Source: a virus. From it: a DNA stretch of 48,160 bases. The notes below the pieces were generated by a model that did not search any database, was not told the origin of the DNA, and was given only the letters and a program-made list of their open reading frames with translations. Where the stretch lies: UHGV virus genome UHGV-1333633; one strand, 5' to 3'. The position numbers and the translations under genes were made by a program. How positions within the stretch are numbered: position 1 is the first letter of the stretch; the number at the start of each line of letters is the position of its first letter. Shown piece by piece: positions 33,956 through 48,160 of the stretch.

Positions 33956-34003
33956 CTCTCAAACCCTCTCTGTTGTTGTTGATGAACTGAGTATACGTCA
34001 TCC

Positions 34004-34019: not shown

Positions 34020-34052
34020 CTTAAATATACGACCCAAATCACAATGCCGATA

Positions 34053-34256
34053 CTAAGCATGAGAAAGTCCATACAATGTCCCCACTCGTTTCAAATCGCG
34101 CTGTGCGTGACAGCTGTAATTACCATCGTCCCACTGTACATAGTAGCGTGGTGGCTCATCCATAATCACATTCATCACAGTGCCGGTGACGACACCATCG
34201 GGGAATAACTTCACAAGTGTCCCGGTTGGGTAGCGTGGGATGGTTGTGCTCATCAC
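34053..34256 (-). CDS. hypothetical protein (67 aa)
   Basis: ATGA overlap with its upstream gene. Confidence 0.4.
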   Translation of the reverse strand: MMSTTIPRYPTGTLVKLFPDGVVTGTVMNVIMDEPPRYYVQWDDGNYSCHAQRDLKRVGTLYGLSHA

Positions 34257-34438
34257 TCACCCTCGTACAGTGGTTTCAGTTGATACCCGAACATGACAGC
34301 GTTGTTATGCGCCACACTACCCGCGCGGACCAGATATGTCGTACCGCGGTTGGTTGTCACTTCGTATGCGTATGGTTTTAAAATGGTGTCGATTTTATCC
34401 AATTCAGTTTCACATTGGGCGATGAAATCGTTACTCAT
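34253..34438 (-). CDS. hypothetical protein (61 aa)
   Basis: Coupled to the DUF3310-like gene. Confidence 0.4.
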   Translation of the reverse strand: MSNDFIAQCETELDKIDTILKPYAYEVTTNRGTTYLVRAGSVAHNNAVMFGYQLKPLYEGE

Positions 34439-34663
34439 TACTCGTTCTCCAGTTCATTAATCAGACGCTCCAGATACCAGCGAGCCTTTTTCACATCTTC
34501 CAGACCGTTCTTCTCTTCATAGCGCCACAGATATTTAACGACATTCGCCACACATACTGCCTCGATACCGGTTTTACCAACGGTGGCGGCCTTAATAGCG
34601 TCGATACATTCGATACTACCTTGTGTGTAGTGTGACGGATGGTTGACCATGTCGGTCATGTTG
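34438..34663 (-). CDS. DUF3310-family small phage protein
   Basis: NHPSHY...IECIDAI...KYLWRY signature. RBS taggag. Start MTDMVNHPSHY. Confidence 0.55.
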
Positions 34664-34718
34664 TATCTCCTATGAAATATATGTATTATGTGTTTAACGA
34701 TTATCACTATGGCATACT

Positions 34719-34734
34719 CTGACGGACTCGTCAA
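34719..34734 (-). promoter_or_regulatory. palindrome CTGACGGACTCGTCAA. Minus promoter TTGACG-17-CATAGT for the DUF3310 cluster.
   Basis: Read on the reverse complement. Confidence 0.5.
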
Positions 34735-34735
34735 C

Positions 34736-35830
34736 ATGCAAATCACCGTAACGCACAATGACCGTAAAAGTTTCGCACTGAATTCCCAACGTGTTTACAC
34801 GGATGAGGGATTTCTGCGTGTGCCGGGTAAAGCCGCTCGTACTGGTATTCAGGAATATCTCGCTTCGGAACTGGGACTGAAAGACCGCGCACCGAACGAC
34901 ATTATCCGTGTATACCGTCCCGCCGAAGAAGTGTTTAACGATGAATCACTTCAGAGCTATCTCGGCGCAGATGTCACGAATAACCATCCTCCTACGCTTG
35001 TCAATGCTTCCACGTACCGTAACACTTCCGTTGGTGTTGTAACGAGTGTTGGTCGTCAGGATGGCGATTTTGTCATTGTGGATATGGTTATCAAGGATAA
35101 AGACGCGATTAAGGCTGTCGAAACCGGTAAGTGTGAGTTGTCAGCGGGTTACACGGCGGTGTATGATGACACACCAGGGACAACGCCGGAAGGTGAACCA
35201 TACGACTTCCGACAGACTCAGATTAAAATTAACCACGTTGCAATTGTTGACCGTGCTCGTGCGGGTGCAATGGCGCGTATCTTCGATAATATGGAGAAAA
35301 AACCCATGTATCAAATCACCACTGACACCGGACTAAAAGTTGATGTGGCGGATGCTGCGGTGGTAGACGCGTTCAAACGCTTGGAACAGCGTGTCAGTGA
35401 CGCCGAAGCCGCCAAAGAAACCGTACAGGCTCAACTCGACGCAGCAATGGAACAGGTTGCCGACCTGACCACCAAATGCAGCGACGAAGCCCTGAAAGCA
35501 CGCGTGGAAGCAATTGCACGTGTTACCACCTCAGCGCGTAAAGTTGCTGGCGATGAATTCACCTGTGACAGCATGGACCCGGTTGCAATCAAACGTGCCG
35601 CTCTTGCTGTCAAACGTCCGTCTGTTGACTGGGCTGAAAAATCTACCGCCTATGTTGAAGCCGCTTTCGACATGGCGGTGGAAGAACCGGTGAAACCTGT
35701 GGTAGACTCACAACTTGAGCAACTGGCTAAAGATGGCGCTAAAGACATCAAACAGCCGGTAGCCGACGCAAAACCTGTACTGTCCCGCGCACAAGAAGCA
35801 CTGCTGCGTCAGACTGGTAAACTTAAATAA
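34736..35830 (+). CDS. scaffold/prohead protease-like protein (DUF2213-like); start uncertain (34709 or 34736)
   Basis: Precedes the DUF2190-like and DUF2184-like capsid genes. C-terminal coiled-coil, Ala-rich scaffold-like region. Confidence 0.45.
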   Translation: MQITVTHNDRKSFALNSQRVYTDEGFLRVPGKAARTGIQEYLASELGLKDRAPNDIIRVYRPAEEVFNDESLQSYLGADVTNNHPPTLVNASTYRNTSVGVVTSVGRQDGDFVIVDMVIKDKDAIKAVETGKCELSAGYTAVYDDTPGTTPEGEPYDFRQTQIKINHVAIVDRARAGAMARIFDNMEKKPMYQITTDTGLKVDVADAAVVDAFKRLEQRVSDAEAAKETVQAQLDAAMEQVADLTTKCSDEALKARVEAIARVTTSARKVAGDEFTCDSMDPVAIKRAALAVKRPSVDWAEKSTAYVEAAFDMAVEEPVKPVVDSQLEQLAKDGAKDIKQPVADAKPVLSRAQEALLRQTGKLK

Positions 35831-35841
35831 GGGTGACATAG

Positions 35842-36330
35842 ATGGCTATTACTGCAACCAGCTACGGTCTGAATCACGACGCAGCCTTTACCGGGATGGT
35901 CGCCGACGGACAAGTGGCAAATATCGTTTCCAAAATCAACGATGACACCGCAACCGTCGCATATGGTAAAGGTGTTGTACGTAGCGGCGAGAAAGGCTTT
36001 AAGGCTGCAACCTCCGCATCTGTAGCGGGTGACTTCGTAGGTGTACTGGTTCGTGAACTGAACCGCTCATACGCTGACGGCACAACTTTCGGCGCTCCGG
36101 TCGACCGTCCGGCATCTGTGCTCACCGCTGGCGTAATCTGGGTAACCGTGGCGGAGGCTGTTGCCGTTGGTGACGCTGCATATCTGCGTGTTGGTGCGAC
36201 TCAGACCGGTGATTTCGCTAACGCAGTGGGTACTGATGCGACTCTGTCGGTTGCCATTCCTGGTGCTAAATTCCTCACTGCCGCGGCATCCGGTGGTCTG
36301 GCTAAACTGTCTCTGGTTGTTGGGGGTTAA
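35842..36330 (+). CDS. structural protein (DUF2190-like; decoration/head fiber candidate)
   Basis: Gly/Ala/Val-rich 162 aa located between the scaffold and the capsid gene. Confidence 0.4.
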   Translation: MAITATSYGLNHDAAFTGMVADGQVANIVSKINDDTATVAYGKGVVRSGEKGFKAATSASVAGDFVGVLVRELNRSYADGTTFGAPVDRPASVLTAGVIWVTVAEAVAVGDAAYLRVGATQTGDFANAVGTDATLSVAIPGAKFLTAAASGGLAKLSLVVGG

Positions 36331-36332
36331 TA

Positions 36333-37367
36333 ATGGATAAGTTAAACAGCGTTGTACTTGACGCACAGACTATCGCGGGTAACCCGTGGGTTAAACAGTA
36401 TCTGGACGGTCAGAACGCTATCAACGTTCCGGCTGAATTCCGTGATGCTGACGGCGGTATCGCGTTCTATATCTCTCAGCTGGCACAGATTGAGCAGACT
36501 ATCTATGAGACGCCGTATGCGGATATCACCTATCTGCAGGACATCCCGGTTGTATCCGGCATCCCGGAACATGCGAACCACTGGGTGTATCGGAGCTTCG
36601 ATGGGCGCACTATTGGGAAGTTCATCGGCGCAAACGCATCCGACCTGCCGCGTGTTGCTCAGTCTGCGAAACTCCACACTGTACCTCTGAACTACGGCGG
36701 CATCGAGTGCCACTATAGTATTGACGAGCTGCGCACCACTGCGTCTCAGAACATGCCGATTGACACCATGCAGCAGCAGCTGGCATATCGTGGCTACGAA
36801 GAGCACAGTCAGAAAGTGGCTTACTTCGGTGACTCACAGCTGGGAATGGCCGGTCTGTTCAACAACTTGAATGTGACGACCACTTCGGCGACTGTTGACT
36901 ACACCACCGCCACTGGTCAAGAGTTGTTCGACATGCTCAATGACCCACTGTTTGACATCATCAAACTGTCCAAAAATTTCCATGTTCCGAATACCGTCCG
37001 TGTGTTCCCGGACCTGTGGAAACGCATGAACAGCCTGCTGATGACTGGTTACTCCGACACCACCGTGATGGAGTTTTTCAAAACCAACAACGCGTACACT
37101 CTGATGACCGGTCAGGAAATCGACATCGCAATCCGTTTCCAGCTGACCGCTGCGGAACTGGCCGCAGGTGGTGTGTCCAACGGTTCAAAAGACCGTGTGT
37201 TCATCTACGAGAAGAACGACCGCAACCTGGGTGTTGCCAAGCCGATTCCTTTCCGTATGCTGGCACCGCAGAATAAGGGTCTGGCTGTAACTGTACCAGC
37301 AGAGTACAAAATTTCAGGTGTGGAAATTCGCTATCCTTTGAGTGCGATCTACCTCGATATGCTGTAA
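36333..37367 (+). CDS. major capsid protein (DUF2184 / encapsulin-like fold family)
   Basis: 344 aa. Followed by the strongest terminator in the window. Confidence 0.7.
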   Translation: MDKLNSVVLDAQTIAGNPWVKQYLDGQNAINVPAEFRDADGGIAFYISQLAQIEQTIYETPYADITYLQDIPVVSGIPEHANHWVYRSFDGRTIGKFIGANASDLPRVAQSAKLHTVPLNYGGIECHYSIDELRTTASQNMPIDTMQQQLAYRGYEEHSQKVAYFGDSQLGMAGLFNNLNVTTTSATVDYTTATGQELFDMLNDPLFDIIKLSKNFHVPNTVRVFPDLWKRMNSLLMTGYSDTTVMEFFKTNNAYTLMTGQEIDIAIRFQLTAAELAAGGVSNGSKDRVFIYEKNDRNLGVAKPIPFRMLAPQNKGLAVTVPAEYKISGVEIRYPLSAIYLDML

Positions 37368-37390
37368 TACCTACCCTCAGTAGCATCCCA

Positions 37391-37416
37391 AGCCCTCTTC
37401 GGAGGGCTTTTCTTTG
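37391..37416 (+). terminator. intrinsic terminator agccctc-ttcg-gagggct + T-tract
   Basis: Read directly. Confidence 0.75.
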
Positions 37417-37471
37417 ATTATCGGAAAGGGTAGAATAATGACGGGTATGTATTACAACTAAGGGTGATTTT

Positions 37472-37789
37472 ATGATTACTGTAAAGAATGTCTCACTGCG
37501 TGCGTTCGCGTTTCCGGGTAAGGGCGACATTCACGAGCGAGTTGTTGCGCCGGGTGATGCGAAGGAGATTGAACTAACGATTCCGGTATATAAGTTCGTA
37601 TCGACATACGTGAACGCGGGTGAACTGGAGGTTATTTCCGGTGAACTGGTCAACCCTGACTCAGACGCAGACGATGTGACCATTGACGAACTTCGCGTAG
37701 AAGCCGAAGAACTGGGTATCAAAGTTGACGCGCGCTGGAAGAAGTCGCGACTTCAGCAGGAAATTGAGGCAGCAAAATCAGCCTCTTAA
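37472..37789 (+). CDS. hypothetical protein with C-terminal Rho_N-like helix
   Basis: DELRVEAEELGIKVDARWKKSRLQQEIE. Confidence 0.4.
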   Translation: MITVKNVSLRAFAFPGKGDIHERVVAPGDAKEIELTIPVYKFVSTYVNAGELEVISGELVNPDSDADDVTIDELRVEAEELGIKVDARWKKSRLQQEIEAAKSAS

Positions 37790-37807
37790 TTAACATAGGG
37801 GTGTGAA

Positions 37808-38392
37808 ATGGCTTTTCCGTCAAATGTAATTCCACCCTCACAACAGCCCCTGTCTGAACTCCTGGATATCTGGGAGAGACAGGGGTATGTTTTTGAGGCT
37901 TCCACTGTTACCAGCGTTGCCGCAGGTGCATCGAATAAAACCATCTTCGTCGCCGGGTCACGTCCGGTAATCCTCTTCGACCGTCAGTTGTCATACGATG
38001 GCGTCGGTGTGAACGCCGCAATCTTTCGCGCGCCCACGTACACTGGTGGCACACTTGTTACTGAAATTAACAACGCCAACGACATCATTGCACAGGGCAA
38101 TACGGCCAACATCTACAGCGGTGCAACGGTGACGGCAGACGGTATCCAGACCCGTTCGGTAAAATATATTTTCGGTAATACCAGTAACCAGTCCAGAGGC
38201 GCAGCATTAAGTGCAATATCAAGTCCACAATTGATTTTACCTGGCGCAGTGCTTAATCTGGTACTGACGAATCGTGACACTAACGCGGCGCAGAACATTG
38301 CAACACATTTGCGCTGGGCCGAACCACCAACAATTCCAGGACTGGTCATTCAGAATGGTCAGTTTGTAAGCTACAACGGGGTCAATCTATGA
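37808..38392 (+). CDS. hypothetical structural protein
   Basis: 194-aa ORF in the head-completion region. Confidence 0.4.
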   Translation: MAFPSNVIPPSQQPLSELLDIWERQGYVFEASTVTSVAAGASNKTIFVAGSRPVILFDRQLSYDGVGVNAAIFRAPTYTGGTLVTEINNANDIIAQGNTANIYSGATVTADGIQTRSVKYIFGNTSNQSRGAALSAISSPQLILPGAVLNLVLTNRDTNAAQNIATHLRWAEPPTIPGLVIQNGQFVSYNGVNL

Positions 38393-38745
38393 GCGGTTAT
38401 CAATACACTATCACACTGGCTACAACGGCAGACGGCACGTATGAGACTGGACTCATTGACCAGAATCACAACAAATGCGACTTCCGTGTGGCGTTCTATA
38501 ACTCCAGTGGTGCTATCGTTACGCCGACAGCCGGCACCGTCACACCAACGATGCAGTTACTTCCCGGTCAGTGGATGGCACCCGGCACCGGTGATGTGAG
38601 CGTGGATGCAACGAAATGCGGTGCCGCTGCGACATACAGTCCCCCGGTGTTCAACACGTCTGCAACGAAAGGTCGTATCGTACTGTCTGGTATCACTGGT
38701 ACTGACATTGCCAAAGTCGTCGCTGTATTCACTGTGGGTATGTAA
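38389..38745 (+). CDS. hypothetical structural protein
   Basis: 118 aa, ATGA-coupled. Confidence 0.4.
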
Positions 38746-38746
38746 C

Positions 38747-39166
38747 ATGGATATCACCGCCGAAGTTATCGCAGATTTTCGCATCTGGCCGCTCGGTGGT
38801 CAGGCTTTCTCGTCCACTACCGATTTCCCGGACAGCCTCATTCAGTACGCATTGTGTGAGGCTGATACCGAGACGGGTAGTAAGCGCTGGGGAAGTTACG
38901 AGGCGGCGTGCGGGAACCTGAAACAACGCGGAATGTTCTATTATGCCGCACACTGGCTCGCTGTTTACTATCCGGAAGGACTGAACAGTGATGTCAATCA
39001 GGAAGCACGTCTTAACGTGGCGACAAAATCCGTAGGGGATGAGTCTATTTCATATCGTGTCCCGGCAATGCTTGAGGTCAACAATGACTGGCTAACCTGG
39101 TCCGTATATGGGCAGCAGTTCTACAGGCTCCGTAAACGCGTCGGTATGGGCGCATTAGCCATATGA
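38747..39166 (+). CDS. head-tail connector-like protein (DUF4054-like)
   Basis: Start MDITAEV immediately after the previous stop. Family typical near DUF2184 capsids. Confidence 0.4.
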
Positions 39167-39175
39167 GGTAATTGA

Positions 39176-39805
39176 ATGTCGGTAACAACTTACGAAGTTC
39201 TTTCTGCTAATACAGTTAGCGAACTCGTTGCGCTCGTCAATGCTGCAACAGGTAAAACGCCACTTGGTGAGATATTCATCCGAGGTGGTGCGCCTCGACA
39301 GGTGGTTGTCACAGGTGAGCCGGTAAGCGGGTACATCTCCGACGATTATCAGGCTGTTGTTGGTGTAGACCCCCAGGGTCTGGCTGACGCTGTAATGGCT
39401 GTCATGACTGATGAGATTCAGCCATTAGGTGCGCCAATCATCCGTAACAATACAATGATTCAAATGATGGGAACCGTGACCCCTTCAAGTAGCGGCTCTG
39501 TGGCGTGGGGTGATATTACCGGGAAACCTACTGTTATCGCCGCGGGTGCGGACGCCACCGCGGCACGTACCGCAATTGGTGCGGGCACTTCGAGTCTGGT
39601 CATTGGTACAACCGCATCAACGGCGATGGCTGGTGATAAGTTTACGCAAGGCTCAGCGGTCCACAATGTCGGATCGCAGACGGTATCGGGAGAGGATGCG
39701 ACAGCCGTGGCTGCCTCGGCAACTACGGCTGTTAACACGGTGGCGACAAAATTAAATGACCTGCTTACCCAACTGCGTGCCTCTGGCATTATTGCATCGA
39801 ACTAA
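39176..39805 (+). CDS. fiber-repeat-containing structural protein
   Basis: GDITGKPT...TAARTAIGAG resembles phage tail-fibre repeat motifs. Confidence 0.4.
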   Translation: MSVTTYEVLSANTVSELVALVNAATGKTPLGEIFIRGGAPRQVVVTGEPVSGYISDDYQAVVGVDPQGLADAVMAVMTDEIQPLGAPIIRNNTMIQMMGTVTPSSSGSVAWGDITGKPTVIAAGADATAARTAIGAGTSSLVIGTTASTAMAGDKFTQGSAVHNVGSQTVSGEDATAVAASATTAVNTVATKLNDLLTQLRASGIIASN

Positions 39806-39813
39806 TTAATATG

Positions 39814-39835
39814 AGCCCCTCACGGGGCTTTATTC
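39814..39835. terminator. hairpin agcccct-cac-ggggct between convergent units
   Basis: Read directly. Weak U tract. Confidence 0.4.
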
Positions 39836-39964
39836 ACCAATCCTCCCGGCGTAGTGACGACCGTAATACTTCATGATGACCTTGTCAGCACATAAATAAC
39901 CTTCATCCTCAACCACGATACCTCTGATAATGAAGAAGCTACGATAGTGTTTTGTTCTCATCAT
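39830..39964 (-). CDS. small ORF (44 aa), ATGA-coupled to the AP2 gene
   Basis: Below the track cutoff. MMRTKHYRSFFIIRG... Confidence 0.3.
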   Translation of the reverse strand: MMRTKHYRSFFIIRGIVVEDEGYLCADKVIMKYYGRHYAGRIGE

Positions 39965-40257
39965 GACCTCGAATATGGTTCGCGTTTTGGACCTTTCGGT
40001 ATCTCCTGCGGAGTGAATCCGCGCTCACGCCAGAAGTACCACAGTTTTCTTGCCAACAACGCGCGATGTGGAGTATTGAAACAACCGACCGTCAGCGTGA
40101 CATTCCTGTAGAAGACCACCGCCTCCCACTTGCCATACCTGTGATGAATCCCGGGAACTCGCGCGAGATGTAACTCACGCGACGCAATCCTGTCACACTT
40201 CTTACGCCATTGTTTCGTGGGGACATGACGCAGGATATCTTCAACAAGGCTTCCCAT
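39961..40257 (-). CDS. AP2-domain DNA-binding protein (HNH-endonuclease-associated type), stand-alone
   Basis: HHRYGKWEAVVFYRNVTLTVGCFNTPHRALLARKLW fits the AP2 beta-sheet/helix pattern. Confidence 0.5.
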   Translation of the reverse strand: MGSLVEDILRHVPTKQWRKKCDRIASRELHLARVPGIHHRYGKWEAVVFYRNVTLTVGCFNTPHRALLARKLWYFWRERGFTPQEIPKGPKREPYSRS

Positions 40258-40305
40258 AATTTATAAACCCTCTCTCTCTAATTCGTGTACTGAGTGTATC
40301 AATGG

Positions 40306-40321
40306 TTGACGAATCCGTCAA
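40306..40321 (-). promoter_or_regulatory. palindrome TTGACGAATCCGTCAA. Minus promoter TTGACG-17-TACACT for the AP2 gene.
   Basis: Read on the reverse complement. RBS gagagagaggg. Confidence 0.5.
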
Positions 40322-40343
40322 TACCACGCGATGACGTCGAGGC

Positions 40344-40500
40344 TAATTTCATTCCGATCAAAAAGTGAACAACTTTGTAGTACAATATAATTACAGTGTA
40401 CTACCGTATAATTTCATTCCGATCAAAAAGTGAACAACTTTGTAGTACAATATAATTACAGTGTACTACCGTATAATTTCATTCCGATCAAAAAGTGAAC
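40344..40500. repeat. 65-bp direct tandem repeat, 2.4 copies. Each unit carries the 8-bp inverted repeat GTAGTACA-N12-TGTACTAC and a cgTATAAT element.
   Basis: Period 65 (40344, 40409, 40474). Palindromes at 40377..40404 and 40442..40469. Confidence 0.85.
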
Positions 40501-40514
40501 GATTACCCGAAAAC

Positions 40515-40787
40515 ACCCCGAAAATGGTAAATCATCAGGGTGGAGAATTTACTTTCACAATCAGCAGCTTACGCGCATAACCGAAAACCCCGTACATTTT
40601 CGCTATATTCTCTCTTCTCTCTTGTTACCGTTTGTATGTTGTCTATATACATTCTTTTACTATCTTACTACTATACTAATTATTATTTTATAAGGGTATA
40701 AGGGTAATAAGTAGTATAGTACTGAAAGTTAAAGAGTTTTTGATACCCCGATGAAGTACCCCGAACGAGTTTTAACGGGGTGTGTGG
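40515..40787. repeat. 273-bp regulatory module, copy B, upstream of the neck/tail operon
   Basis: Near-identical to 28352..28624. Confidence 0.85.
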
Positions 40788-40836
40788 ATACTGGCGCAAC
40801 GTTGTGTGATAATGTCTTGACAAACGAGGGCACACT

Positions 40837-41340
40837 ATGTCAGTCAACATTAAAGCGCTACAGCAAGCCAAACAGGCAATACGTTCGAAACTGGAGCAAT
40901 ACGCTAAAGCCGGTCAGAAGACTGTGACCGTCGGTATCCATTCGGACGCAGGTGAACATCCTGACTCCGGTATGACAAATGCCCAGCTTGGCGCATTGCT
41001 GAATTACGGTAACCCGAATAACAAGCTATACGGTAATCCCGCACCTATTCCACCGCGCCCCTGGCTGATACCCGGTGTGCAAAGCGGTAAACAGGACATC
41101 GTGGATACCATTGCTCATGGTATAGCTAATGATTTACCGCTTGACCGGGTGCTGGAACAAGTGGGCGCGTTTGCGGCTGGTGCGGTTCAACAATACATGA
41201 CTGACCTCGACACTCCTCCGAACAGTCCGTACACTATCGCTCGGAAGGGTTCCAGTTCGCCGCTTATTGATACTGGCGCTCTACGGGCGAGCGTAACGTA
41301 CAAGGTCACCAACGAAAAACCTGATGAGGGTATCTTATGA
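40837..41340 (+). CDS. neck/virion morphogenesis protein
   Basis: 167 aa. First gene after repeat copy B. Confidence 0.4.
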   Translation: MSVNIKALQQAKQAIRSKLEQYAKAGQKTVTVGIHSDAGEHPDSGMTNAQLGALLNYGNPNNKLYGNPAPIPPRPWLIPGVQSGKQDIVDTIAHGIANDLPLDRVLEQVGAFAAGAVQQYMTDLDTPPNSPYTIARKGSSSPLIDTGALRASVTYKVTNEKPDEGIL

Positions 41341-41690
41341 GTCTGTCAATGCGTGGTCACATTGACAACGCGTTTAAATCTGTACCGGCGACACACGTGG
41401 GTAAATCTGGTACATACGTGGATGGTATCTGGACGACAACGACCTCCCACCCCGTGAGCTTCACAGTCAACGTCCAGCCACTTAATGGTAGGGAGTTGGA
41501 CTTCCTTCAGCGTGGTGGTCAGCGCATTGTTGACCCGCGTAAAATCTACGTCAACAGCGGCGACCTCGACTTAATTGCACTCGATGGTGAGTGGGTGTTC
41601 CTGGGACAACGTTGGAAAGTAATCCAAACCGATAATCGTCCGTGGCGGAAATATTGCAAGGTGGTGGTAGACCGGTATGACCAACAATGA
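41337..41690 (+). CDS. tail completion/neck protein
   Basis: 117 aa, ATGA-coupled. Confidence 0.4.
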   Translation: MSLSMRGHIDNAFKSVPATHVGKSGTYVDGIWTTTTSHPVSFTVNVQPLNGRELDFLQRGGQRIVDPRKIYVNSGDLDLIALDGEWVFLGQRWKVIQTDNRPWRKYCKVVVDRYDQQ

Positions 41691-42258
41691 AATCTTTGCG
41701 GCTCTCAGACCGCATATAATCAACGTGACGGGCATTTCTGAGTGTATCCTTGCCGACCCTAATGGTATGGCTCCGGAAGGTCCCTACGCCTCTCTGAGGC
41801 CGCGACAATCGATTCGTGAGCGGGGTCAGGCGAACATCGTCGTGAGAGACGGCGAGAATGACACTATCGTGTATGAAATTCGCGCTCAAATCGTCGCCGA
41901 CTGTGATGTCAACTTCTTTCGTGGTGAAGCGATGCGATACGCCGAACTACTCAAGGAGTGTCACAAACGCCCGGACGTGTGCTGGCCCCTGTGGAAATTG
42001 GGTATTGGTTGGGGTGGGACCGAACCGGTACAAAACCTAACTGCGCTGCAAGCCAGTAATTTCGAAGAACGGTCACAGATAACCATCAAGTTGTTATACG
42101 AGTCGGTCAATACGGTAACTGTGAATAACATTCGCCGGGTACCGTTCAGCATCGCCGACGGTAACGCCGAAGTCTATTTCGAGAACGGAACGGTCCAATT
42201 ACGTTACGTGGAAACAGAATCCGGTATACTCTATCAATCCGGTGAAATTTCGATATAA
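41677..42258 (+). CDS. tail terminator/sheath stabiliser candidate
   Basis: 193 aa, overlapping coupling. Confidence 0.35.
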   Translation: MTNNEIFAALRPHIINVTGISECILADPNGMAPEGPYASLRPRQSIRERGQANIVVRDGENDTIVYEIRAQIVADCDVNFFRGEAMRYAELLKECHKRPDVCWPLWKLGIGWGGTEPVQNLTALQASNFEERSQITIKLLYESVNTVTVNNIRRVPFSIADGNAEVYFENGTVQLRYVETESGILYQSGEISI

Positions 42259-42283
42259 TGGTCAACGTGTGCACACTGTAACT

Positions 42284-42299
42284 TACGAGGACTCGTAAA
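42284..42299. promoter_or_regulatory. variant palindrome TTACGAGGACTCGTAA 2 nt before the sheath-like gene ATG
   Basis: Perfect 7-bp arms. Shares the GGACTCGT core with the family. Confidence 0.3.
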
Positions 42300-42300
42300 C

Positions 42301-43434
42301 ATGTTTCCAATTGAACAAATCATCCCAATCACAACCCGGATTTCTCCGGCGGGATTAAGTACGGCAAACTTCGCTTCCGCGATGTTGTTTGCCAATAAGA
42401 CCGAACTCCCGAGCGACTTCACCAAAGACACGGTGCGTACCTACTATTCCACCTCGTCTCTCGCTGCTGACTTCGCTCCCACAACCGAGACGTATAAGGC
42501 TGGTGCCAAATTCCTTGGCTCCACTCCGGCGGTACCGAAACTCACCGTGTGGGCTACCGCTGACGATGATGTCGATATCAAAGCAACGCTTGCCAAGGCG
42601 TTCAATAAGTATTACTGGTACTGGACTCTTGTCACCAAAGATGTACTGGGGACGGAGGCCGACGTACTGGCGATTGCATCGTGGTGTGAAGAGAACAGCG
42701 TCATGTTCCCTAACAGTCAGACCGGTGAAGCCGTGGTTAAAATTCGTAACCCGGACGCCAATGACGACATCTGTTCGAAGCTGAACACGCTGGGCTATCG
42801 TCACGCGTTTACCGTTGCTCATGCAACCGACCCGTATGCGGCCTATGCGCTCATCAAGCACTCTGCCTCGGTCAACTACAGTGCCGATAACAGCACTATT
42901 GACACTGAGTTTAAGAAATCTCCTGGTGTTGCTGCTGAAGACCTGTCCGACACCGAACAGAACGCGATGGTCACCAAACGTTGCGCATTCTACAGCGTGC
43001 TTGACCTACAGGGGAGCACCGACAGCGGTCGCTGGCTGCAGACGTGGTCGCACAGTACCTACGGTGAGTCCATTTCCGACATCGTCGATTTGGACGCGTT
43101 TGTGAACTCTCTGCGTGTGGAACTGTACAATACCATTGTCAACCAGACCACCAAACTCCCGCAGACTCCGGTTGGTCAGGAAGCGCTCATCGGTGCGGCC
43201 AAACGTGTGGGTAGACAATATATTCGCAACCGTTATCTCGGCCCACGCAATTACATCAGTCCCGACACCGGTCTGGAAGCGTACACCGAGGGATTCGAAG
43301 TGCTGACTAAAGCGACGGATATTCTCGACCTGTCCGATTCTGACCGCGCGGCACGTAAGTCTGCACCGATTAACATGCGTGTGTTCAAAGCTGGTAGCGT
43401 CAGAATTTGTGACGTCACCGTTGACGTTTATTAA
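42301..43434 (+). CDS. major tail protein, sheath-like (DUF3383-like)
   Basis: 377 aa. Followed by a small tube-like gene. The baseplate genes are of contractile-tail type. Confidence 0.4.
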   Translation: MFPIEQIIPITTRISPAGLSTANFASAMLFANKTELPSDFTKDTVRTYYSTSSLAADFAPTTETYKAGAKFLGSTPAVPKLTVWATADDDVDIKATLAKAFNKYYWYWTLVTKDVLGTEADVLAIASWCEENSVMFPNSQTGEAVVKIRNPDANDDICSKLNTLGYRHAFTVAHATDPYAAYALIKHSASVNYSADNSTIDTEFKKSPGVAAEDLSDTEQNAMVTKRCAFYSVLDLQGSTDSGRWLQTWSHSTYGESISDIVDLDAFVNSLRVELYNTIVNQTTKLPQTPVGQEALIGAAKRVGRQYIRNRYLGPRNYISPDTGLEAYTEGFEVLTKATDILDLSDSDRAARKSAPINMRVFKAGSVRICDVTVDVY

Positions 43435-43447
43435 TGGAGAATGACCG

Positions 43448-43864
43448 ATGTCATTAGAAAACTTTTCCACAAGTAACACGGTCATCACAATTAATGGCCG
43501 CATCATCACTTCATTCGGGGAGTCCGACCCGCCGTACACTGACGAGCCGATTGACGCGTCAACTGTGTTACGTCGTGGTCTGGGTGGTAATGCTATTCGT
43601 CTGGACCGTATCAACCCGGGTCGTCGTGTCACACTGAACCTAAACCCTGGTTCGGCTGACTCCGCGTATATTAACGGACTGTTTCAGAGTAAGGCCAACA
43701 TCGAGTTGACCTATACTCAAATCGGCACACTTGACGCCGCTGTGGGCACAGAAGGTGTGATTGTGAATGATGGTCCGCGCGGGCGTGGTGGTCAGACAAT
43801 TACCGATGACCAGTGGATTTTTGAGTTCAATTCATGGACTGCGACAAAGGGTCCAGCAAGCTAA
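43448..43864 (+). CDS. tail tube-like protein (DUF3277-like)
   Basis: 138 aa directly after the sheath-like gene. Confidence 0.4.
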   Translation: MSLENFSTSNTVITINGRIITSFGESDPPYTDEPIDASTVLRRGLGGNAIRLDRINPGRRVTLNLNPGSADSAYINGLFQSKANIELTYTQIGTLDAAVGTEGVIVNDGPRGRGGQTITDDQWIFEFNSWTATKGPAS

Positions 43865-43890
43865 ATGAAAGGGGCCATCAGGCCCCTTTT
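43845..43890. repeat. direct repeat L (tube gene 3' end + terminator) flanking the homing-endonuclease gene. Partner at 45393..45435.
   Basis: caaagggtccagcaagctaaatgaaaggggccatcaggcccctttt versus caagggtccggcaagctaaacaaaaggggccatcgggcccctt. Confidence 0.8.
43866..43890 (+). terminator. terminator aggggcc-atca-ggcccct + TTTT after the tube gene. The stop codon of the minus-strand HEG lies in its loop.
   Basis: Read directly. Confidence 0.6.
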
Positions 43891-45326
43891 CTCCACATGT
43901 ATTTTTTAGTACCCGAATTTTCCGTAATCAAACACCCCGCCTCATCCATCATTTGACGTTGAGTCTTTTTCTTGGAAAATACCGACGGGTCAACCCCTAA
44001 CTTACTTAGCGTTTTTGGGATGTTAATCTTCCACCATTGTTGCCGACTCATGAAACCCACTTTCCGGTGCCATATTCTGAATGATGTGACCGAATCATCA
44101 ACCAGTTCGAATCCTGAGTTTTCATAACTTGACCCGTCGAAATAGTCACAATCTACGAACGATTGGCACCATTGCATATTTAGAGCCGCGGCCGCGTGTT
44201 TGAACAGCTTGGACTGACCACCTCTGACCATACAACTCGTGGCATAACGTACCATATCGAATCCACCCTCAGCAATTTGGTTAAATGTCATAACTGCGAC
44301 GATTTGACCGGATTTATGGGTGAGTGCGAAATTATGTGAGGCCCGAGCATAGCCCTGAACGTGATGTTCAATCAGGAACTTCCGGGCATCTTTGCCGGGG
44401 ATATTCACAATCTTACAGTCGCGAGCGTTGACTCTCACATCTTCGGAGTGCCCCGTGGCGTTTTTTATGATTCGCGTAATGATTGGTTTTTTATCTTTCC
44501 AGTCTTGTTCTGATATTGATATCAATCTATACCCAACACTGTTAGTTCTGATACGTTTGTTTTTGTGATATCCCCTCGGTCGTTTCTGCAGGCTGTGCCA
44601 GTATGTGCCATTGAATTCTATTGCCACTTTTGAAGCGTGGTCCACTATGTCGAGTTCTTGAGGTGCGATTAGTGAGCGATTCGAAATGTCAACATCACCG
44701 ATTAGCGACTGTATTTCCACTTCGAAACTTGATGGTCCCACGTTCGCGCATTTGGGGCAACCCACCCCGTAAGCATGCTGAAACGCAATCGGTGTGAAGT
44801 CTCCGTGTTTTTCGCATGTAACTACAATTTTGTCGCCAGATTTGGTGTATGATGTTTTGTCATAGGTATATGGACTACCACTGTCTTTCATTTTTTGGAC
44901 GAATGATTCCGTATCGTATTTCCCACCTTGTTTGCACTTGGGACAACCTTGCCCCGTGGTGCAGTGTGCAGATGGAGTCTGGTAGAAATCTCCATGAGTG
45001 GGACAGGTGATTCTCATCTTTGTACGGGTGTCAACATATGTTTCGGGGTGGTACTCATATTTATTTCCGTGTTTCTCTTTGGCGCGGTCGAGCATTTCAG
45101 AAACAGACTTCCGTTTGTTCGTATTTTTAATTTTTTTTGCACATTCTGGGCAGTTGCTGCCATTAGTGTGGTCTGCTGCAATCTGTAAGAAATCCCCGTG
45201 AATGCGGCATTTTATCCGAACTGTGTTCGCCTTACCCGTGTAAACTACCCCCGTGTAATCGTACCTGTCACCGTGTACAGATTTGGCCTTATTGACGTAT
45301 TCTTCGGTTGTCAACTTTTTGGACAT
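43878..45326 (-). CDS. free-standing homing-endonuclease-like protein: 3 Zn-ribbon repeats + Vsr-like/DUF559 PD-(D/E)xK nuclease domain + C-terminal domain
   Basis: Repeats with HGDF...GCPxC. ELDIVDHASKVAIEFNGTYWH matches the Vsr/DUF559 core. Start MSKK after RBS gagggaggag. Confidence 0.6.
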   Translation of the reverse strand: MSKKLTTEEYVNKAKSVHGDRYDYTGVVYTGKANTVRIKCRIHGDFLQIAADHTNGSNCPECAKKIKNTNKRKSVSEMLDRAKEKHGNKYEYHPETYVDTRTKMRITCPTHGDFYQTPSAHCTTGQGCPKCKQGGKYDTESFVQKMKDSGSPYTYDKTSYTKSGDKIVVTCEKHGDFTPIAFQHAYGVGCPKCANVGPSSFEVEIQSLIGDVDISNRSLIAPQELDIVDHASKVAIEFNGTYWHSLQKRPRGYHKNKRIRTNSVGYRLISISEQDWKDKKPIITRIIKNATGHSEDVRVNARDCKIVNIPGKDARKFLIEHHVQGYARASHNFALTHKSGQIVAVMTFNQIAEGGFDMVRYATSCMVRGGQSKLFKHAAAALNMQWCQSFVDCDYFDGSSYENSGFELVDDSVTSFRIWHRKVGFMSRQQWWKINIPKTLSKLGVDPSVFSKKKTQRQMMDEAGCLITENSGTKKYMWRKGA

Positions 45327-45392
45327 GTTCTCCTCCCTCTCATGATGACCAACGTGTTTCGATTGAATAATACACGTGCTACATAGCCAAAA

Positions 45393-45435
45393 CAAGGGTC
45401 CGGCAAGCTAAACAAAAGGGGCCATCGGGCCCCTT
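45393..45435. repeat. direct repeat R (copy of tube gene 3' end + terminator)
   Basis: See 43845..43890. Confidence 0.8.
45411..45435 (-). terminator. minus-strand terminator for Rha copy 1 (hairpin + ttttgttt)
   Basis: Read on the reverse complement. Confidence 0.55.
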
Positions 45436-45448
45436 GGTTATTTTTAAC

Positions 45449-46165
45449 TCAAATCAAACCTTCTTCAGATAATTTTCTGACAATCCACATTTCACCTTCG
45501 GCATAGAACATAGGTTGTGAGAACCCATTCTCTGTCTCCCGCATTATCCCGTACCCCTTATCGATGAACCATTGCTGAAATACACGTCCACGCTTCACGG
45601 AGCGATTGTAGACGTCCATTGAGGTTAACTGCTTGTTTAACCATATCGCTGATTGTCCGAACTTCTGGGCGATCTGAGTGGCGTTATAGAGACCATTGCG
45701 TTCTACAATCCGGTCGTAGACGTCTGCTTTTGGTGTCATCTCCTCATTCTCTAGTGCAAGACGTTCTTTCTCTTTCTCGCTTTCCAGCAGCGCTTCAAGT
45801 GCTTGAATATAGTTTTGTGGTAGTGCGGGTGTATTCACCCGTGATTCCAGCTCTTGCCAACGCTTGATTATCTTCATTCGTAATTGAGCGTTATACCCTG
45901 ACACCAGGCAGATGGTGTTATCTTTATCCAGCCGGTACTCCCATGCGTTTGGGTTGGTGGTATCATACTGAATGCACGTAACCCCATGATTCGTAACGTA
46001 ACTCAAATTTGAGTTACGAACATAATCTTCATCGTGACCACCATGTAGAGCGCAGAGCATTGAGCGAATGTCTCTGCAAACATTGTCGTGACGCTTCTCA
46101 ACTAGCGTCGCAATCTCGCGGCTAGACATGGTTAGTTCCGATTTTGTGTTTACTAAATCGTTCAT
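45449..46165 (-). CDS. Rha-family regulatory protein with KilAC (antirepressor C-terminal) domain, paralog 1 (intact)
   Basis: N-terminus TMSSREIATLVEKRHDNV (Phage_pRha). C-terminus YNATQIAQKFGQSAIWLNKQL... (KilAC). Confidence 0.75.
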   Translation of the reverse strand: MNDLVNTKSELTMSSREIATLVEKRHDNVCRDIRSMLCALHGGHDEDYVRNSNLSYVTNHGVTCIQYDTTNPNAWEYRLDKDNTICLVSGYNAQLRMKIIKRWQELESRVNTPALPQNYIQALEALLESEKEKERLALENEEMTPKADVYDRIVERNGLYNATQIAQKFGQSAIWLNKQLTSMDVYNRSVKRGRVFQQWFIDKGYGIMRETENGFSQPMFYAEGEMWIVRKLSEEGLI

Positions 46166-46172
46166 CTCTGTT

Positions 46173-46182
46173 CCCCCCCCCC
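46173..46182. repeat. C10 homopolymer (G10 on the mRNA) between RBS and the remaining leader of Rha paralog 1
   Basis: Read directly. Absent from the leaders of the other copies. Confidence 0.9.
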
Positions 46183-46285
46183 TCTTGTTCGTGTGAGTGT
46201 AGTTTCGATAAAAATCACGACCCGTTCAAATCGATTTATTCATGGTCACGATTAACGATGTGATTGATCACAATTGACCCCTTAG

Positions 46286-46429
46286 TTATTTTCTTTTACT
46301 CCGAATGTGAAAGTCTGCTTTATCCATCATGTCTTTGCGCCAGCAAACACCGGTGCCCATATACGCCGGGTCGTCACTTTCCGCATAACCAAATTCGTTT
46401 TCATGGTATGTGCAAATCGTGTCGGTCTG
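46286..46429 (-). pseudogene. 3' fragment of the small exported-protein gene (paralog of 46709..46963)
   Basis: Translates to QTDTICTYHENEFGYAESDDPAYMGTGVCWRKDMMDKADFHIRSKRK*, about 90% identical to the C-terminus of the 46709 ORF. No N-terminus. Confidence 0.5.
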
Positions 46430-46590
46430 CCTCCGTTCGACGGCATGACCTTTTCCTCAAAAGTGAGGGAAAGGTCATGCGCCATTTTCGATATGTCGCG
46501 TCGTACATTATCGTGTTCCTTCCCTGTCAATTCCGCAATCTCACGGCTGGACATCGTTTGTACATCGCCGACAGTCATTAAGTCATTCAT
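46327..46590 (-). CDS. truncated Rha N-terminal-domain ORF (recombination remnant)
   Basis: MNDLMTVGDVQTMSSREIAELTGKEHDNVRRDISKM, then unrelated sequence. Contains the inverted repeat 46444..46479. Confidence 0.4.
   Translation of the reverse strand: MNDLMTVGDVQTMSSREIAELTGKEHDNVRRDISKMAHDLSLTFEEKVMPSNGGRPTRFAHTMKTNLVMRKVTTRRIWAPVFAGAKT
46444..46479. repeat. 16-bp-arm inverted repeat catgaccttttcctca-aaag-tgagggaaaggtcatg at the junction inside the truncated Rha ORF
   Basis: Read directly. Confidence 0.7.
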
Positions 46591-46708
46591 ATTTCGTATC
46601 TCCTCTCTTGTTCGTGTGAGTGTAGTTTCGATGAAAATCACGACCCGTTCAAATCGATTTGTTTATGATCACGATTAACGATGTAATTGATGACAATTGA
46701 CCTCTTAG

Positions 46709-46963
46709 TTATTTTCTTTTACTCCGAATGTGGAAGTCCGCTTTGTCCATCATTTCTTTACGCCAGCAAATCCCGGTACCCATATACGCCGGGTCGTCAC
46801 TTTCCGCATAACCGTATTCATTTTCATGATACGTACAAATCGTATCGGTTTGCTCATCGTAAATCTGGAATTGCTCGCTCTGAGCACTGTGGGCACCACT
46901 GCAGTAAATTGCCGCAGCCACGATAACAACCAACTGAATTTTAAATTTGTTTAACATTTTCAC
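46709..46963 (-). CDS. small exported protein (signal peptide, 4 Cys)
   Basis: MKMLNKFKIQLVVIVAAAIYCSGAHSA signal. Its N-terminal leader is paralogous to the 47750..47932 protein (MLNK...IVAAV). Confidence 0.5.
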   Translation of the reverse strand: MKMLNKFKIQLVVIVAAAIYCSGAHSAQSEQFQIYDEQTDTICTYHENEYGYAESDDPAYMGTGICWRKEMMDKADFHIRSKRK

Positions 46964-46984
46964 ATCTCCCCTGTTATTTTTAAC

Positions 46985-47674
46985 TCAAATCAAACCTTCT
47001 TCAGATAATTTTCTGACAATCCACATTTCACCTTCGGCATAGAACATAGGTTGTGAGAACCCATTCTCTGTCTCCCGCATTATCCCGTACCCCTTATCGA
47101 TGAACCACTGTTGAAATACACGTCCGCGCTTCACGGAGCGATTGTAGACGTCCATCGAGGCTAGTTGTTTGTTTAGCCATATCGCTGATTGTCCGAACTT
47201 CTGTGCGATTTGAGTGGCGTTATAGAGACCATTGCGTTCTACGATTCGGTCGTAGACGTCTGCTTTTGGTGCTGCTATCGATAGTTTCTCCTGCGCCAAA
47301 AGCTTCTGTTCGTACTCGGTAGCCCATGCTCTCGCGGCTTCTGCTGGATTTGTGAAGTCTGGTAGTGTCGGTTTGTTGGCGTTCTCAAGTTCTTGCCAAC
47401 GGTTAATCAACTTCTGACGCAAGGGAATGTTATAGCCAGTCATTAACAGTAGTGTTTGATTCTTGGTTAGCAGATACTCGGATGTATACCCTCTATTATC
47501 TGTAAGTGACTGAAATTCCTCATGGTCCAAATTTGGACCATCTTTTAACTGCTCGATAATTGTGCGAATATCGCGAATAATGTGTTTATGTTCCTTCCCA
47601 GTCAATTCCGCAATCTCACGGCTGGACATCGTTTGTACATCGCCGACAGTCATTAAGCCATTCATATCTCGCAT
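46985..47674 (-). CDS. Rha-family / KilAC antirepressor-like protein, paralog 2 (intact)
   Basis: MSSREIAELTGKEHKHIIRDIR N-terminus. C-terminal 100 aa identical to paralog 1. Confidence 0.75.
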   Translation of the reverse strand: MRDMNGLMTVGDVQTMSSREIAELTGKEHKHIIRDIRTIIEQLKDGPNLDHEEFQSLTDNRGYTSEYLLTKNQTLLLMTGYNIPLRQKLINRWQELENANKPTLPDFTNPAEAARAWATEYEQKLLAQEKLSIAAPKADVYDRIVERNGLYNATQIAQKFGQSAIWLNKQLASMDVYNRSVKRGRVFQQWFIDKGYGIMRETENGFSQPMFYAEGEMWIVRKLSEEGLI

Positions 47675-47749
47675 CTCCTCTCTCTCGTTTGCGTGAGTGT
47701 GGTTTGTTTATGGTCACGATGATGACTGACTAGATTTTGAACTCACAAA

Positions 47750-47932
47750 TCATTTTGTCAGCATCCTTTTGAGTTTCATTGCGCACAGGTAGAAGAAGTA
47801 GAGACCTGGTAGAGCCAGAATCATCGGCACAATCTCCCCATTTTTCTCGTGTTCCAGACCCACTGCAATCATGGATGCGGCCACAGCTGCGACAATTAAG
47901 AAACATACCACTGTCATGATTTTGTTTAACAT
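47750..47932 (-). CDS. small membrane protein (2 TM), paralogous leader to 46709 protein
   Basis: MLNKIMTVVCFLIVAAVAASMIAVG...PMILALPGLYFFYLCAM. Confidence 0.45.
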   Translation of the reverse strand: MLNKIMTVVCFLIVAAVAASMIAVGLEHEKNGEIVPMILALPGLYFFYLCAMKLKRMLTK

Positions 47933-47977
47933 TTTCGTGTCCTCTCTGTTGTTTTGTTGATGTAACTGTAACTCGCA

Positions 47978-47993
47978 TTGACGACGCCGTCAA
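47978..47993 (-). promoter_or_regulatory. palindrome TTGACGACGCCGTCAA. Minus promoter TTGACG-17-TACAGT for the 47932 gene.
   Basis: Read on the reverse complement. RBS agagagg. Confidence 0.5.
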
Positions 47994-47996
47994 CAC

Positions 47997-48160
47997 TTAA
48001 ATCAAACCTTCTTCGGATAATTTTCTGACAATCCACATTTCACCTTCGGCATAGAACATAGGTTGTGAGAACCCATTCTCTGTCTCCCGCATTATCCCGT
48101 ACCCCTTATCGATGAACCACTGTTGAAATACACGTCCGCGCTTCACGGAGCGATTGTAGA
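47997..48160 (-). CDS. 3' end of Rha/KilAC paralog 3. The gene continues across the window junction into 1..421.
   Basis: Identical to 46985..47148. Stop at 47997..47999. The window end joins the window start in perfect register with paralog 2. Confidence 0.55.
   Translation of the reverse strand, partial: YNRSVKRGRVFQQWFIDKGYGIMRETENGFSQPMFYAEGEMWIVRKLSEEGLI

Follow-up and report, generated by a model that had tools for sequence, protein, structure and literature searches.

Organization of the locus

The stretch of DNA analysed here (the window) is the whole of UHGV virus genome UHGV-1333633, 48,160 nucleotides (nt) in length, which is a Klebsiella myovirus genome of the genus Jedunavirus, complete and circularly permuted. 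Papers on the genus describe it as lytic. The tail tube and tail chaperone genes enclose an island of 5,010 bp with all genes on the minus strand, holding an array of genes for putative regulators with an N-terminal Rha domain (the head) and a C-terminal KilAC domain (the tail), together with genes for a small protein predicted to be secreted (Exp), a small protein with two hydrophobic helices (Mem) and a free-standing endonuclease. In the order of transcription, the island consists of a leader repeat, Rha/KilAC copy 3, a sigma-70-like promoter, Mem, Rha/KilAC copy 2 and Exp, followed by a leader repeat, a chimeric open reading frame (ORF) of 87 amino acids (aa), another leader repeat, copy 1, a terminator, the HNH endonuclease gene and a duplicated terminator.

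All ORFs listed in an earlier reading made from the letters of the window alone (the sequence-only reading) are present at their coordinates, and the repeats among them are far beyond chance by self-BLAST. That reading had grouped the genes into three units; we find four Rha-type heads and three KilAC tails instead, distributed over two intact genes, the hybrid copy 3 and one head stump. It had also placed the array between the tube gene and the chaperone gene and across the ends of the window, with which the alignments agree: the match to phage RCIP0113 is contiguous over the window ends (162..1/48160..46579, 1,744 bp, 97.1%), and contigs from ENA and JGI are colinear across them. The window equals ENA contig ERZ1310472 NODE_629 (48,215 bp) minus its 55-nt terminal overlap, with 100% identity over 4,416 bp up to the contig's own end. 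Therefore, the apparent genome junction is an arbitrary assembly cut within the KilAC tail of copy 3. Klebsiella phages RCIP0113, RCIP0054, KpV79, FZ14, KpV52 and MEW1 match positions 45300..48160 at 93-97%, and in the RefSeq records of KpV79 and KpV52 the homologous genes sit between the tail sheath/'virion structural protein' pair and the chaperone/tape-measure genes. The genes of the array, their leaders and the island boundaries are as follows.

45449..46165, minus strand: Rha/KilAC copy 1, intact, 238 aa, head type N1; head 100% identical to that of KpV52 gp30
46985..47665, minus strand: Rha/KilAC copy 2, intact, 226 aa, head type N2; the ORF reaches 47674; supported by Pfam, PHROGs and a structure model
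396..590, minus strand: copy 3 head (N3a), 64-aa ORF ending at TGA 398..396; 99% identical to the first 61 codons of KpV79 gp32
1..413, minus strand: copy 3 body, with N3b head (RCIP0045_00030-type) from codon 41, linker and beginning of the KilAC tail; 96.5% identity with RCIP0045 across 579 bp
47997..48160, minus strand: copy 3 KilAC tail, final 54 codons with the stop; the gene runs on at window position 1
46327..46590, minus strand: chimeric 87-aa ORF; first 55 codons are a gp30-type Rha head (N4), then out of frame into an Exp 3' fragment
46286..46430, minus strand: 3' fragment of a second, KpV52-type exported-protein gene, codons 38-84 and stop; 94% aa identity to Exp residues 38-84
46709..46957, minus strand: Exp, 82-aa precursor of a predicted small secreted protein; phrog_31975, E 3e-58; in 24 of 25 islands compared
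47750..47932, minus strand: Mem, 60 aa, with two hydrophobic helices, each about 20 residues long; 2 clusters only; in 6 of 25 islands
604..688, minus strand: leader repeat upstream of copy 3, with CAAATCGATTTG inside; at the homologous position, a promoter is annotated in the KpV79 record
46602..46692, minus strand: leader repeat upstream of the N4 head; contains CAAATCGATTTG
46179..46268, minus strand: leader repeat upstream of copy 1, found by self-BLAST
43448..43864, plus strand: tail tube gene, island boundary
712..1086, plus strand: tail chaperone gene, island boundary

The Rha/KilAC genes and their start signals

Both intact copies pass the Pfam gathering score for an N-terminal pRha domain (PF09669; 56.4 bits in copy 1 and 64.5 bits in copy 2, cut-off 29.9 bits) and for an ANT/KilAC domain at the C-terminus (PF03374; 43.7 and 41.8 bits, cut-off 25.3 bits), and in PHROGs the full-length genes fall into phrog_63, 'anti-repressor Ant' (E 5e-54 and 2e-57). 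For each of the two short ORFs, the Pfam match is confined to the first half of Rha. An AlphaFold 2 (AF2) model of copy 2 shows a predicted winged-helix head, a linker helix and a compact KilAC domain, with a predicted local distance difference test score (pLDDT) of about 85 for the domains. A search of solved structures by sequence gave no match, PADLOC and NCBIfam returned nothing useful for Exp, Mem or Rha, and Rfam at its gathering threshold had no match in the whole window. The true starts are likely at 47665 for copy 2 (as in database entries), at 46957 for Exp and at 590 for the copy 3 head.

By self-BLAST, the Rha starts are preceded by leader repeats of about 85 bp, a conserved leader motif, ACTCAC(A/G)C(A/G)AAC, stands before each of the four heads, and leaders and Shine-Dalgarno sequences are kept at every head. 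The Shine-Dalgarno sequence of copy 1 has a form of its own:

46173..46182, minus strand: G10 homopolymer in place of the copy 1 GGGGAG Shine-Dalgarno sequence; relatives have AGAGGGGAGAAC

The G10 tract recurs in the near-identical JGI contig L030, and all relatives carry AGAGGGGAGAAC; the tract is therefore specific to this lineage, and it might be subject to slippage variation. As to the leaders themselves, the 12-nt palindrome CAAATCGATTTG has only two sites in the 48-kb genome (0.05 expected), at 646..657 and 46650..46661, both in leader repeats. It overlaps the promoter annotated in the KpV79 record, and its arms resemble the CAAATTTG core of the intragenic palindromes described below.

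A variable accessory hotspot within the tail module

We compared 25 islands: that of the window, those of 6 GenBank phages and those of 18 IMG/VR contigs. Their sizes range from 560 to 5,010 bp, the window island being the largest, and the number of Rha/KilAC genes is 0 in 11 islands, 1 in seven, 2 in two, 3 in four and 4 in one. Exp occurs in 24 (KpTDp1 is the island that lacks it), including 11 without any Rha gene, the HNH gene occurs in four (one of them without a Rha gene) and Mem in six. Intact Rha/KilAC copies are kept in every phage of the clade that carries the array. The view of the sequence-only reading that this is a variable accessory hotspot within the tail module is thus well founded, given the range of island sizes and gene counts and the presence of other cargo in relatives; the comparison with related genomes that it proposed reveals no single conserved copy. 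Moreover, this tail occurs in 447 GenBank phage records; every record listed with multiple copies is a jedunavirus, and the extra copies over all records number only 25. The chaperone gene has two alleles among L001-L028, 99-100% and about 74% identical to that of the window. The islands with 2-4 Rha genes all have the 99-100% allele, and those with 0-1 copies, all Rha-less ones included, go with the 74% allele.

Constant tails and exchanged heads

Self-BLAST aligns the three KilAC 3' ends of the window over 287-328 bp at 95-97% identity (E 1e-138 to 1e-151). The last 100 residues of copies 1 and 2 had been reported as identical; they are nearly so, but there are seven differences, six of them in the linker, and the last 94 residues differ once (T/A). 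The accompanying claim, that the N-terminal heads differ and that domains are shuffled on a constant tail, holds. At least five Rha head types are found on tails that are 95-100% identical, and in three RCIP0045-like genomes (L006, L008, L011) the tails are identical or nearly so though the heads are only 50-56% identical. Proteins P0116 and P0157 have a Bro-N head (PF02498), and their linker and KilAC tail are 98% and 84% identical to those of copy 2; they show head exchange between domain families on this same tail.

What keeps the tails alike appears to be twofold. Among 22 distinct tail sequences the ratio of nonsynonymous to synonymous polymorphism (pN/pS) is 0.06, which argues that the identity of the tail proteins is largely due to purifying selection. 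Ongoing gene conversion, suggested in the sequence-only reading, is backed by conversion tracts and by a three-site patch in copy 1. Tail identity is 98.3% within genomes versus 96.4% between genomes, exact identical runs between tails extend over 104-200 nt, and permutations of the identical-site runs among the three window tails reached the observed run in 0, 18 and 0 of 5,000 cases. Between copy 1 and its KpV52 orthologue there are exactly three differences, and at each of these sites copy 1 matches its paralogues.

Broken genes and their junctions

Two genes of the array are broken, each at a short microhomology.

407..413, minus strand: junction 1, 7-nt microhomology CGCTCGG between a gp32-type head and an N3b-type head, out of frame; from alignments of the parents
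46422..46430, minus strand: junction 2, 9-nt microhomology GCAGACCGA, common to the KpV79 gp30-type Rha head and the KpV52-type Exp gene; from a three-way alignment

The two parents of copy 3 overlap solely in CGCTCGG; the second of them, RCIP0045_00030, is an intact 232-aa Rha/KilAC gene with another head type. The reading frames of copy 3 overlap only between TAG 424..422 and TGA 398..396, and any 1-nt deletion within 423..396 gives back an ORF of 250 codons. Copy 3 had been described as split by a +1 frameshift: the frame break is real, but it coincides with the head junction of the two parents at 413..407. In the chimeric 87-aa ORF, the first 55 codons are identical to KpV79 gp30, and what follows is a KpV52-type Exp gene from codon 38 on; this ORF matches the Pfam Rha profile at positions 1-56 only. 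The 36-bp inverted repeat that had been noted at the breakpoint does exist, but it is 38 nt long (46443..46480), lies 13 nt upstream of the junction at 46430..46422 and was not made by the break, being identical in the intact KpV79 gp30.

The island as a whole is a mosaic. Positions 1100..407, spanning the chaperone gene, the leader and the first 61 codons of gp32, are 99.3% identical to KpV79; 413..47995 is 96.5% identical to RCIP0045 and 162..46579 is 97.1% identical to RCIP0113; further on, 47403..46422 is 96.9% identical to KpV79, 46430..45394 is 96.8% identical to KpV52 and 45862..43800 is 97.8% identical to KpV79 again. By self-BLAST, 46853..46602 and 46430..46179 form a repeat of 252 bp at 90.5% identity. 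The two Exp-3'/leader segments of this repeat are each about 97% identical to a different relative, one KpV79-like and the other KpV52-like, which argues for recombination between diverged islands: judging by these identities, the seeming duplication is a merger of two diverged island haplotypes. The notion of duplicated units fails on the same figures, as far as a recent duplication within this genome is meant.

Relatives have scars of their own. There are 62-aa stumps of N2-type heads in RCIP0045 and pKp383, an N1 stump joined to a Mem tail in RCIP0113 and a three-part hybrid in KpTDp1.

Could the truncated and frameshifted forms be products of mis-assembly, of a collapsed repeat or of homopolymer sequencing errors? 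The window is a SPAdes metagenome contig (minus the terminal overlap), the exact runs common to the tails exceed the k-mer, so that swapping of whole segments is possible in principle, and a run of six A (A6) lies 21 nt from junction 1. Nonetheless, we regard such an artefact as very improbable. A JGI contig from another sample covers the whole 5,461-bp region at 99.89% identity, with 6 mismatches and no gaps, and has both junctions, the A6 run and the G10 tract. Since both junctions recur in an independent metagenome contig, they are not assembly errors, and the truncated forms are genuine, as the sequence-only reading had taken them to be. Six contigs of about 48 kb encode exactly the same chimeric protein. 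These were found through an exact-protein look-up only; exact searches for the two junctions in IMG/VR and JGI metagenome contigs gave zero matches. Both junctions lie in unique sequence with only 7-9 nt in common, too short a stretch for any assembler to join, the order of genes matches isolate genomes, and similar arrays with their own scars occur in isolates. Homopolymer error is ruled out as the source of the break in copy 3, as A-runs of 4-9 nt all leave an early stop and never restore the frame.

Even less probable, in our judgement, is that copy 3 is made at full length by a programmed +1 frameshift within 396..424. The frames do overlap by 26 nt, removal of one base yields the 250-codon ORF, and the tail of copy 3 shows no relaxed selection. 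Yet the overlap coincides with the junction of two unrelated parental sequences and is unique to this lineage, relatives having either an intact gp32-type or an intact N3b-type gene. The product would link residue 60 of one head to residue 41 of another, with part of the domain doubled, and copy 3 has no conserved slippery motif.

Palindromes inside the Rha heads

Every head in the window contains a palindrome of its own at the same place, namely in the codons for the loop that, by the structure model, would follow the recognition helix.

45997..46018, no strand: perfect 22-nt palindrome CGTAACTCAAATTTGAGTTACG in copy 1 head N1; unique in the genome, 0 expected
47522..47541, no strand: perfect 20-nt palindrome ATGGTCCAAATTTGGACCAT in copy 2 head N2; unique in the genome
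46443..46480, no strand: near-perfect 38-nt palindrome in the N4 stump; identical in intact KpV79 gp30
445..459, no strand: palindrome TCCTCAAATTGAGGA in copy 3 head N3a
359..379, no strand: 21-nt palindrome in copy 3 body N3b

We surveyed 38 non-redundant heads (less than 85% nt identity) for palindromes with stems of at least 6 bp. A palindrome centred 85-130 nt after the MSSREI motif is present in 25 of the 38, compared with 3.65 on average and never more than 8 in 200 shuffles of synonymous codons, and nearly half of all palindromes found anywhere in the surveyed genes (27 of 55) fall into that single 45-nt bin. In a replication set of 9 further heads from bacterial genomes, 8 have a palindrome (shuffle mean 0.7), one of them a perfect one of 34 nt. 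Perfect or near-perfect palindromes, each specific to its head, are thus a feature of Rha heads from many different phages and prophages. The motif CAAATTTG occurs only in the two intact heads of the window.

Several properties of these palindromes bear on what they are. Their spacers measure 0-2 nt in 23 of 25 cases, complementarity extends past the perfect stems (43% Watson-Crick pairs versus 25% expected, p 9e-9), and the mismatches in the flanks are balanced, G.T and A.C standing at 29:28. Taken together, these features favour a dyad in the DNA over a hairpin in the mRNA; the short spacers and the mismatch balance in particular speak against the hairpin. A regulon within the phage was rejected as well, each palindrome being unique in the genome at up to 3 mismatches.

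Our leading proposal is that the palindrome is a self-operator for the dimeric head encoded around it; the rival idea is a cruciform-prone hot spot of recombination. Both illegitimate junctions lie 13-28 nt from head palindromes, as do some junctions in relatives. A more ambitious version would join the two ideas: the palindrome would be the binding site of the dimeric protein that its gene encodes and would also mark where heads break and rejoin, and the array would amount to a library of DNA-binding specificities, driven by recombination and resting on a single constant KilAC effector directed at the host, letting a lytic phage retune the control of resident prophage, satellite or host loci. 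Taken as a whole we consider this version rather unlikely. We found no description of this locus or of the head palindromes in the literature searched on Jedunavirus, on Rha/KilAC and on rha/IHF, and a palindrome of fixed position and variable sequence in Rha-domain genes seems not to have been described before. Should it prove to be the binding site of the protein itself, it would give direct access to the DNA specificity of a very large and functionally obscure family.

Exp and Mem

Exp is the resident gene of the locus. As read from the sequence, it has a variable hydrophobic N-terminal signal peptide with an AXA-type cleavage site (AHS/AQ) and two invariant Cys in the mature part. Its 43 clusters, all at least 58% identical, have no Pfam domain and are restricted to jedunaviruses. 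An AF2 model from an alignment of 21 sequences reached a pLDDT of 55 and is unusable. Neither Exp nor Mem matches an exclusion or anti-defence family in Pfam, NCBIfam or PADLOC, and the sole PHROG match has no function attached. As a conserved mini-protein with predicted secretion, Exp is a candidate for an envelope-acting factor specific to the genus. In L015, L020 and L021, whose islands measure about 730 bp, the homologue of Exp is a protein of 200 aa with the same signal peptide, about 42% identity in the first part and then an unrelated C-terminal extension.

Mem is an orphan, likewise restricted to jedunaviruses, and is preceded by a promoter of its own:

47965..47993, minus strand: sigma-70-like promoter TTGACG-17-TACAGT; homologous to the region upstream of Exp in minimal islands

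The promoter, ribosome-binding site (RBS) and first codons of Mem (47933..47996) share homology with those that belong natively to Exp in minimal islands such as L025 and L018. Mem therefore stands on a copy of the Exp expression signals, which explains the MLNK start that the two proteins have in common. On these alignments, Mem seems to have been inserted behind the Exp signals.

The sequence-only reading saw in each exported or membrane protein and its neighbouring Rha gene a functional unit, the array being made of duplicated two-gene modules for superinfection exclusion, anti-defence or host takeover; none of these three roles has support from homology in Pfam, PHROGs, NCBIfam or PADLOC. 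Indeed, Exp or Mem adjoins a Rha gene in the window, the segment that spans the Exp 3' end, the leader and the Rha start is present twice, and the start signals of Mem derive from the same source as those of Exp. We nonetheless find the idea improbable. Exp is present in nearly every island, 11 of them Rha-less, Rha copy number varies independently of it, and Mem is confined to six islands; the two Exp-leader segments, as set out above, are each closer to a different relative than to each other; and no member of the proposed modules matches an exclusion or defence family. The pairing is not consistent either, for in transcription order the Exp-type gene follows Rha in units 2 and 3 of the sequence-only reading but precedes it in unit 1.

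The endonuclease and the terminators

The tube-proximal end of the island is occupied by an endonuclease gene between two terminator-like structures.

43878..45326, minus strand: free-standing HNH/homing-type endonuclease of 482 aa, mobile cargo at the island's 3' end; the ORF (505 aa) reaches a TTG at 45395
45416..45435, minus strand: intrinsic terminator-like hairpin at the end of the Rha array; KpV79 and KpV52 have a rho-independent terminator annotated at the homologous site
43868..43889, minus strand: terminator-like hairpin after the HNH gene, a 9-pair stem then a T run; part of a 42-bp duplicate of the terminator region after copy 1

The HNH protein matches the HNH endonucleases of phrog_559 (E 6e-110), the homing endonucleases of phrog_3339 (E 9e-56) and the PADLOC HEase model (E 7e-6). 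In the four islands that have it, with or without Rha genes, it always sits at the tube-proximal end, at 93-99% aa identity. The duplicated terminator regions, 45435..45394 and 43888..43847, are 90% identical, so that the HNH gene (43878..45395) is flanked by two copies of one region. We infer that the endonuclease probably promotes exchange in the neighbouring array.

Formation of the array and its possible role

The most probable explanation, in our opinion, is that the locus is the accessory hotspot in the tail module of jedunaviruses, seen here enlarged and in part broken, and that its regulators combine specificity heads with a constant, host-directed tail. The basic state is one promoter, one Exp gene and one terminator on the strand opposite to the tail genes. 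Sequence comparison shows that, in one clade, genes for regulators with a Rha head and a KilAC tail have accumulated around Exp. Each of them has the same leader repeat of about 85 nt at its start and the same KilAC tail of about 300 nt at its end, and these common repeats allow copies to be gained or lost, and a tail to receive another head, when co-infecting relatives or paralogues recombine. Gene conversion keeps the tails alike, and occasional joins at microhomologies of 7-9 nt beside the head palindromes leave dead hybrids. The intact protein would be a dimeric winged-helix DNA binder whose head sets the specificity, possibly by recognizing the palindrome in its own gene. By analogy with AriS, whose KilAC domain acts on the SOS response, the constant tail may act on a conserved host target. 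The Rha/KilAC genes would thus serve as dispensable early or host-takeover regulators, with Exp as an independent periplasmic factor.

Several findings sit uneasily with this explanation. No second copy of any head palindrome exists in the phage genome, so that the palindromes, if operators, would serve their own gene or targets outside the phage. The likeness of the KilAC domains to that of AriS is at the level of the Pfam family only, and AriS comes from temperate phages of Gram-positive hosts. A Foldseek search of the copy 2 AF2 model against the PDB gave no significant match (best E 0.06), the weak top matches being winged helices of the MarR, MerR, RacA, BldC and excisionase kinds. A sigma-70 scan calls no promoter in the leader repeat, and the HNH gene is absent from most multi-copy islands and is hence not required for shuffling. 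Finally, about half of the jedunaviruses have no Rha genes, which would also fit a purely selfish element.

That last thought deserves consideration in its own right. Rha/KilAC genes could be selfish mobile cassettes, spread by recombination or by endonuclease-assisted conversion without benefit to the phage and decaying after insertion. Their distribution is patchy, with 0-4 copies per genome, head segments have 80-83% DNA identity to those of Salmonella Jerseyvirus phages, with Shiga toxin (Stx)-converting phages also among the matching records, an HNH endonuclease adjoins the array, and recombination scars recur in several relatives. We still hold a wholly selfish origin to be unlikely, given the strong purifying selection on the tails (pN/pS as above), the conservation of leaders and Shine-Dalgarno sequences at every head and the maintenance of intact copies throughout the clade. 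All in all, mosaic Ant/AriS-like regulators in a hotspot make this array an ordinary kind of phage accessory locus, and the palindrome is the part of it most worth following up.

Relation to known systems

Antirepressors such as P22 Ant and P1 Ant1-KilA are defined by their binding to a cognate phage repressor. With these proteins, and with phi80 Rha, the genes described here have Pfam domains in common, and the RefSeq product name 'anti-repressor Ant' in the jedunaviruses KpV79 and KpV52 follows from such domains; the name is an annotation transfer. The label stands, in lytic Klebsiella phages used for therapy, for a probably dispensable accessory family of variable copy number and not for a lysogeny function, which is relevant to safety assessment. 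Iyer, Koonin and Aravind reportedly described, in 2002, domain-shuffled families of Bro-N, KilA-N, Rha and KilAC regulators in DNA viruses, including the multicopy bro genes of baculoviruses. Several paralogues per genome, shuffling of heads and tails and a patchy distribution are points of likeness to the present locus; here, by comparison, the shuffling can be traced base by base through leader and tail crossover repeats, microhomologies of 7-9 nt and conversion tracts. Lytic phages of the T4 type carry free-standing homing endonuclease genes. Presence/absence polymorphism, an intergenic position, a promoter and terminator of their own and a recombination-prone neighbourhood are common to these cassettes and the HNH gene described here, but most of the expanded arrays have no endonuclease.

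The closest characterized proteins are the AriS-like regulators of prophages in Listeria and other Firmicutes, which resemble the Rha/KilAC genes in having a variable head on a constant KilAC tail. AriS inhibits the SOS response of its host through the KilAC domain, and in this class AntA/B, Bro-N and pRha domains alternate as heads (Azulay et al., 2022, PMC9043618). In temperate phages, AriS occurs as one gene beside the lysogeny module, whereas the genes in question are present in 0-4 tandem copies inside the tail module of a lytic myovirus; lying between tube and chaperone genes of a lytic genus, they fall outside the temperate-phage, lysogeny-region setting of the AriS-like class. In the lytic vibriophage ICP1, Rha or Bro-N/KilAC genes flank a variable locus directed against PLE, an element that resembles phage-inducible chromosomal islands, and covary with its cargo (Barth et al., 2021, PMC8263062). 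Such genes are thus found at a hypervariable accessory locus of another lytic phage, as a single gene beside CRISPR-Cas or Odn in ICP1 and as a tandem array beside a gene for a secreted mini-protein and an HNH gene here. With its repeats as crossover handles, its effector domain kept uniform by conversion and its datable microhomology scars, the Jedunavirus locus offers a clean natural record of how phage regulators are assembled.

Minor observations in relatives

The gp32-type head, one parent of copy 3, exists in two versions (KpV79 gp32, L002, versus L004 and L028), which differ by a run of A7 versus A6 (window 434..439) and a compensating indel about 30 nt downstream. The stretch of 12 residues between them is consequently read in another frame, NRLVRSPSLG versus TDSLGRLRSE; the cause is either a genuine frameshift with compensation or a pair of sequencing errors in KpV79. 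Other cargo at the same hotspot (L022, L023, L024, L027 and L028) includes an HslV-like protein of 158 aa, DUF551-like proteins that end in AAMLN(Q/R)K and hydrophobic proteins of 50-59 aa.

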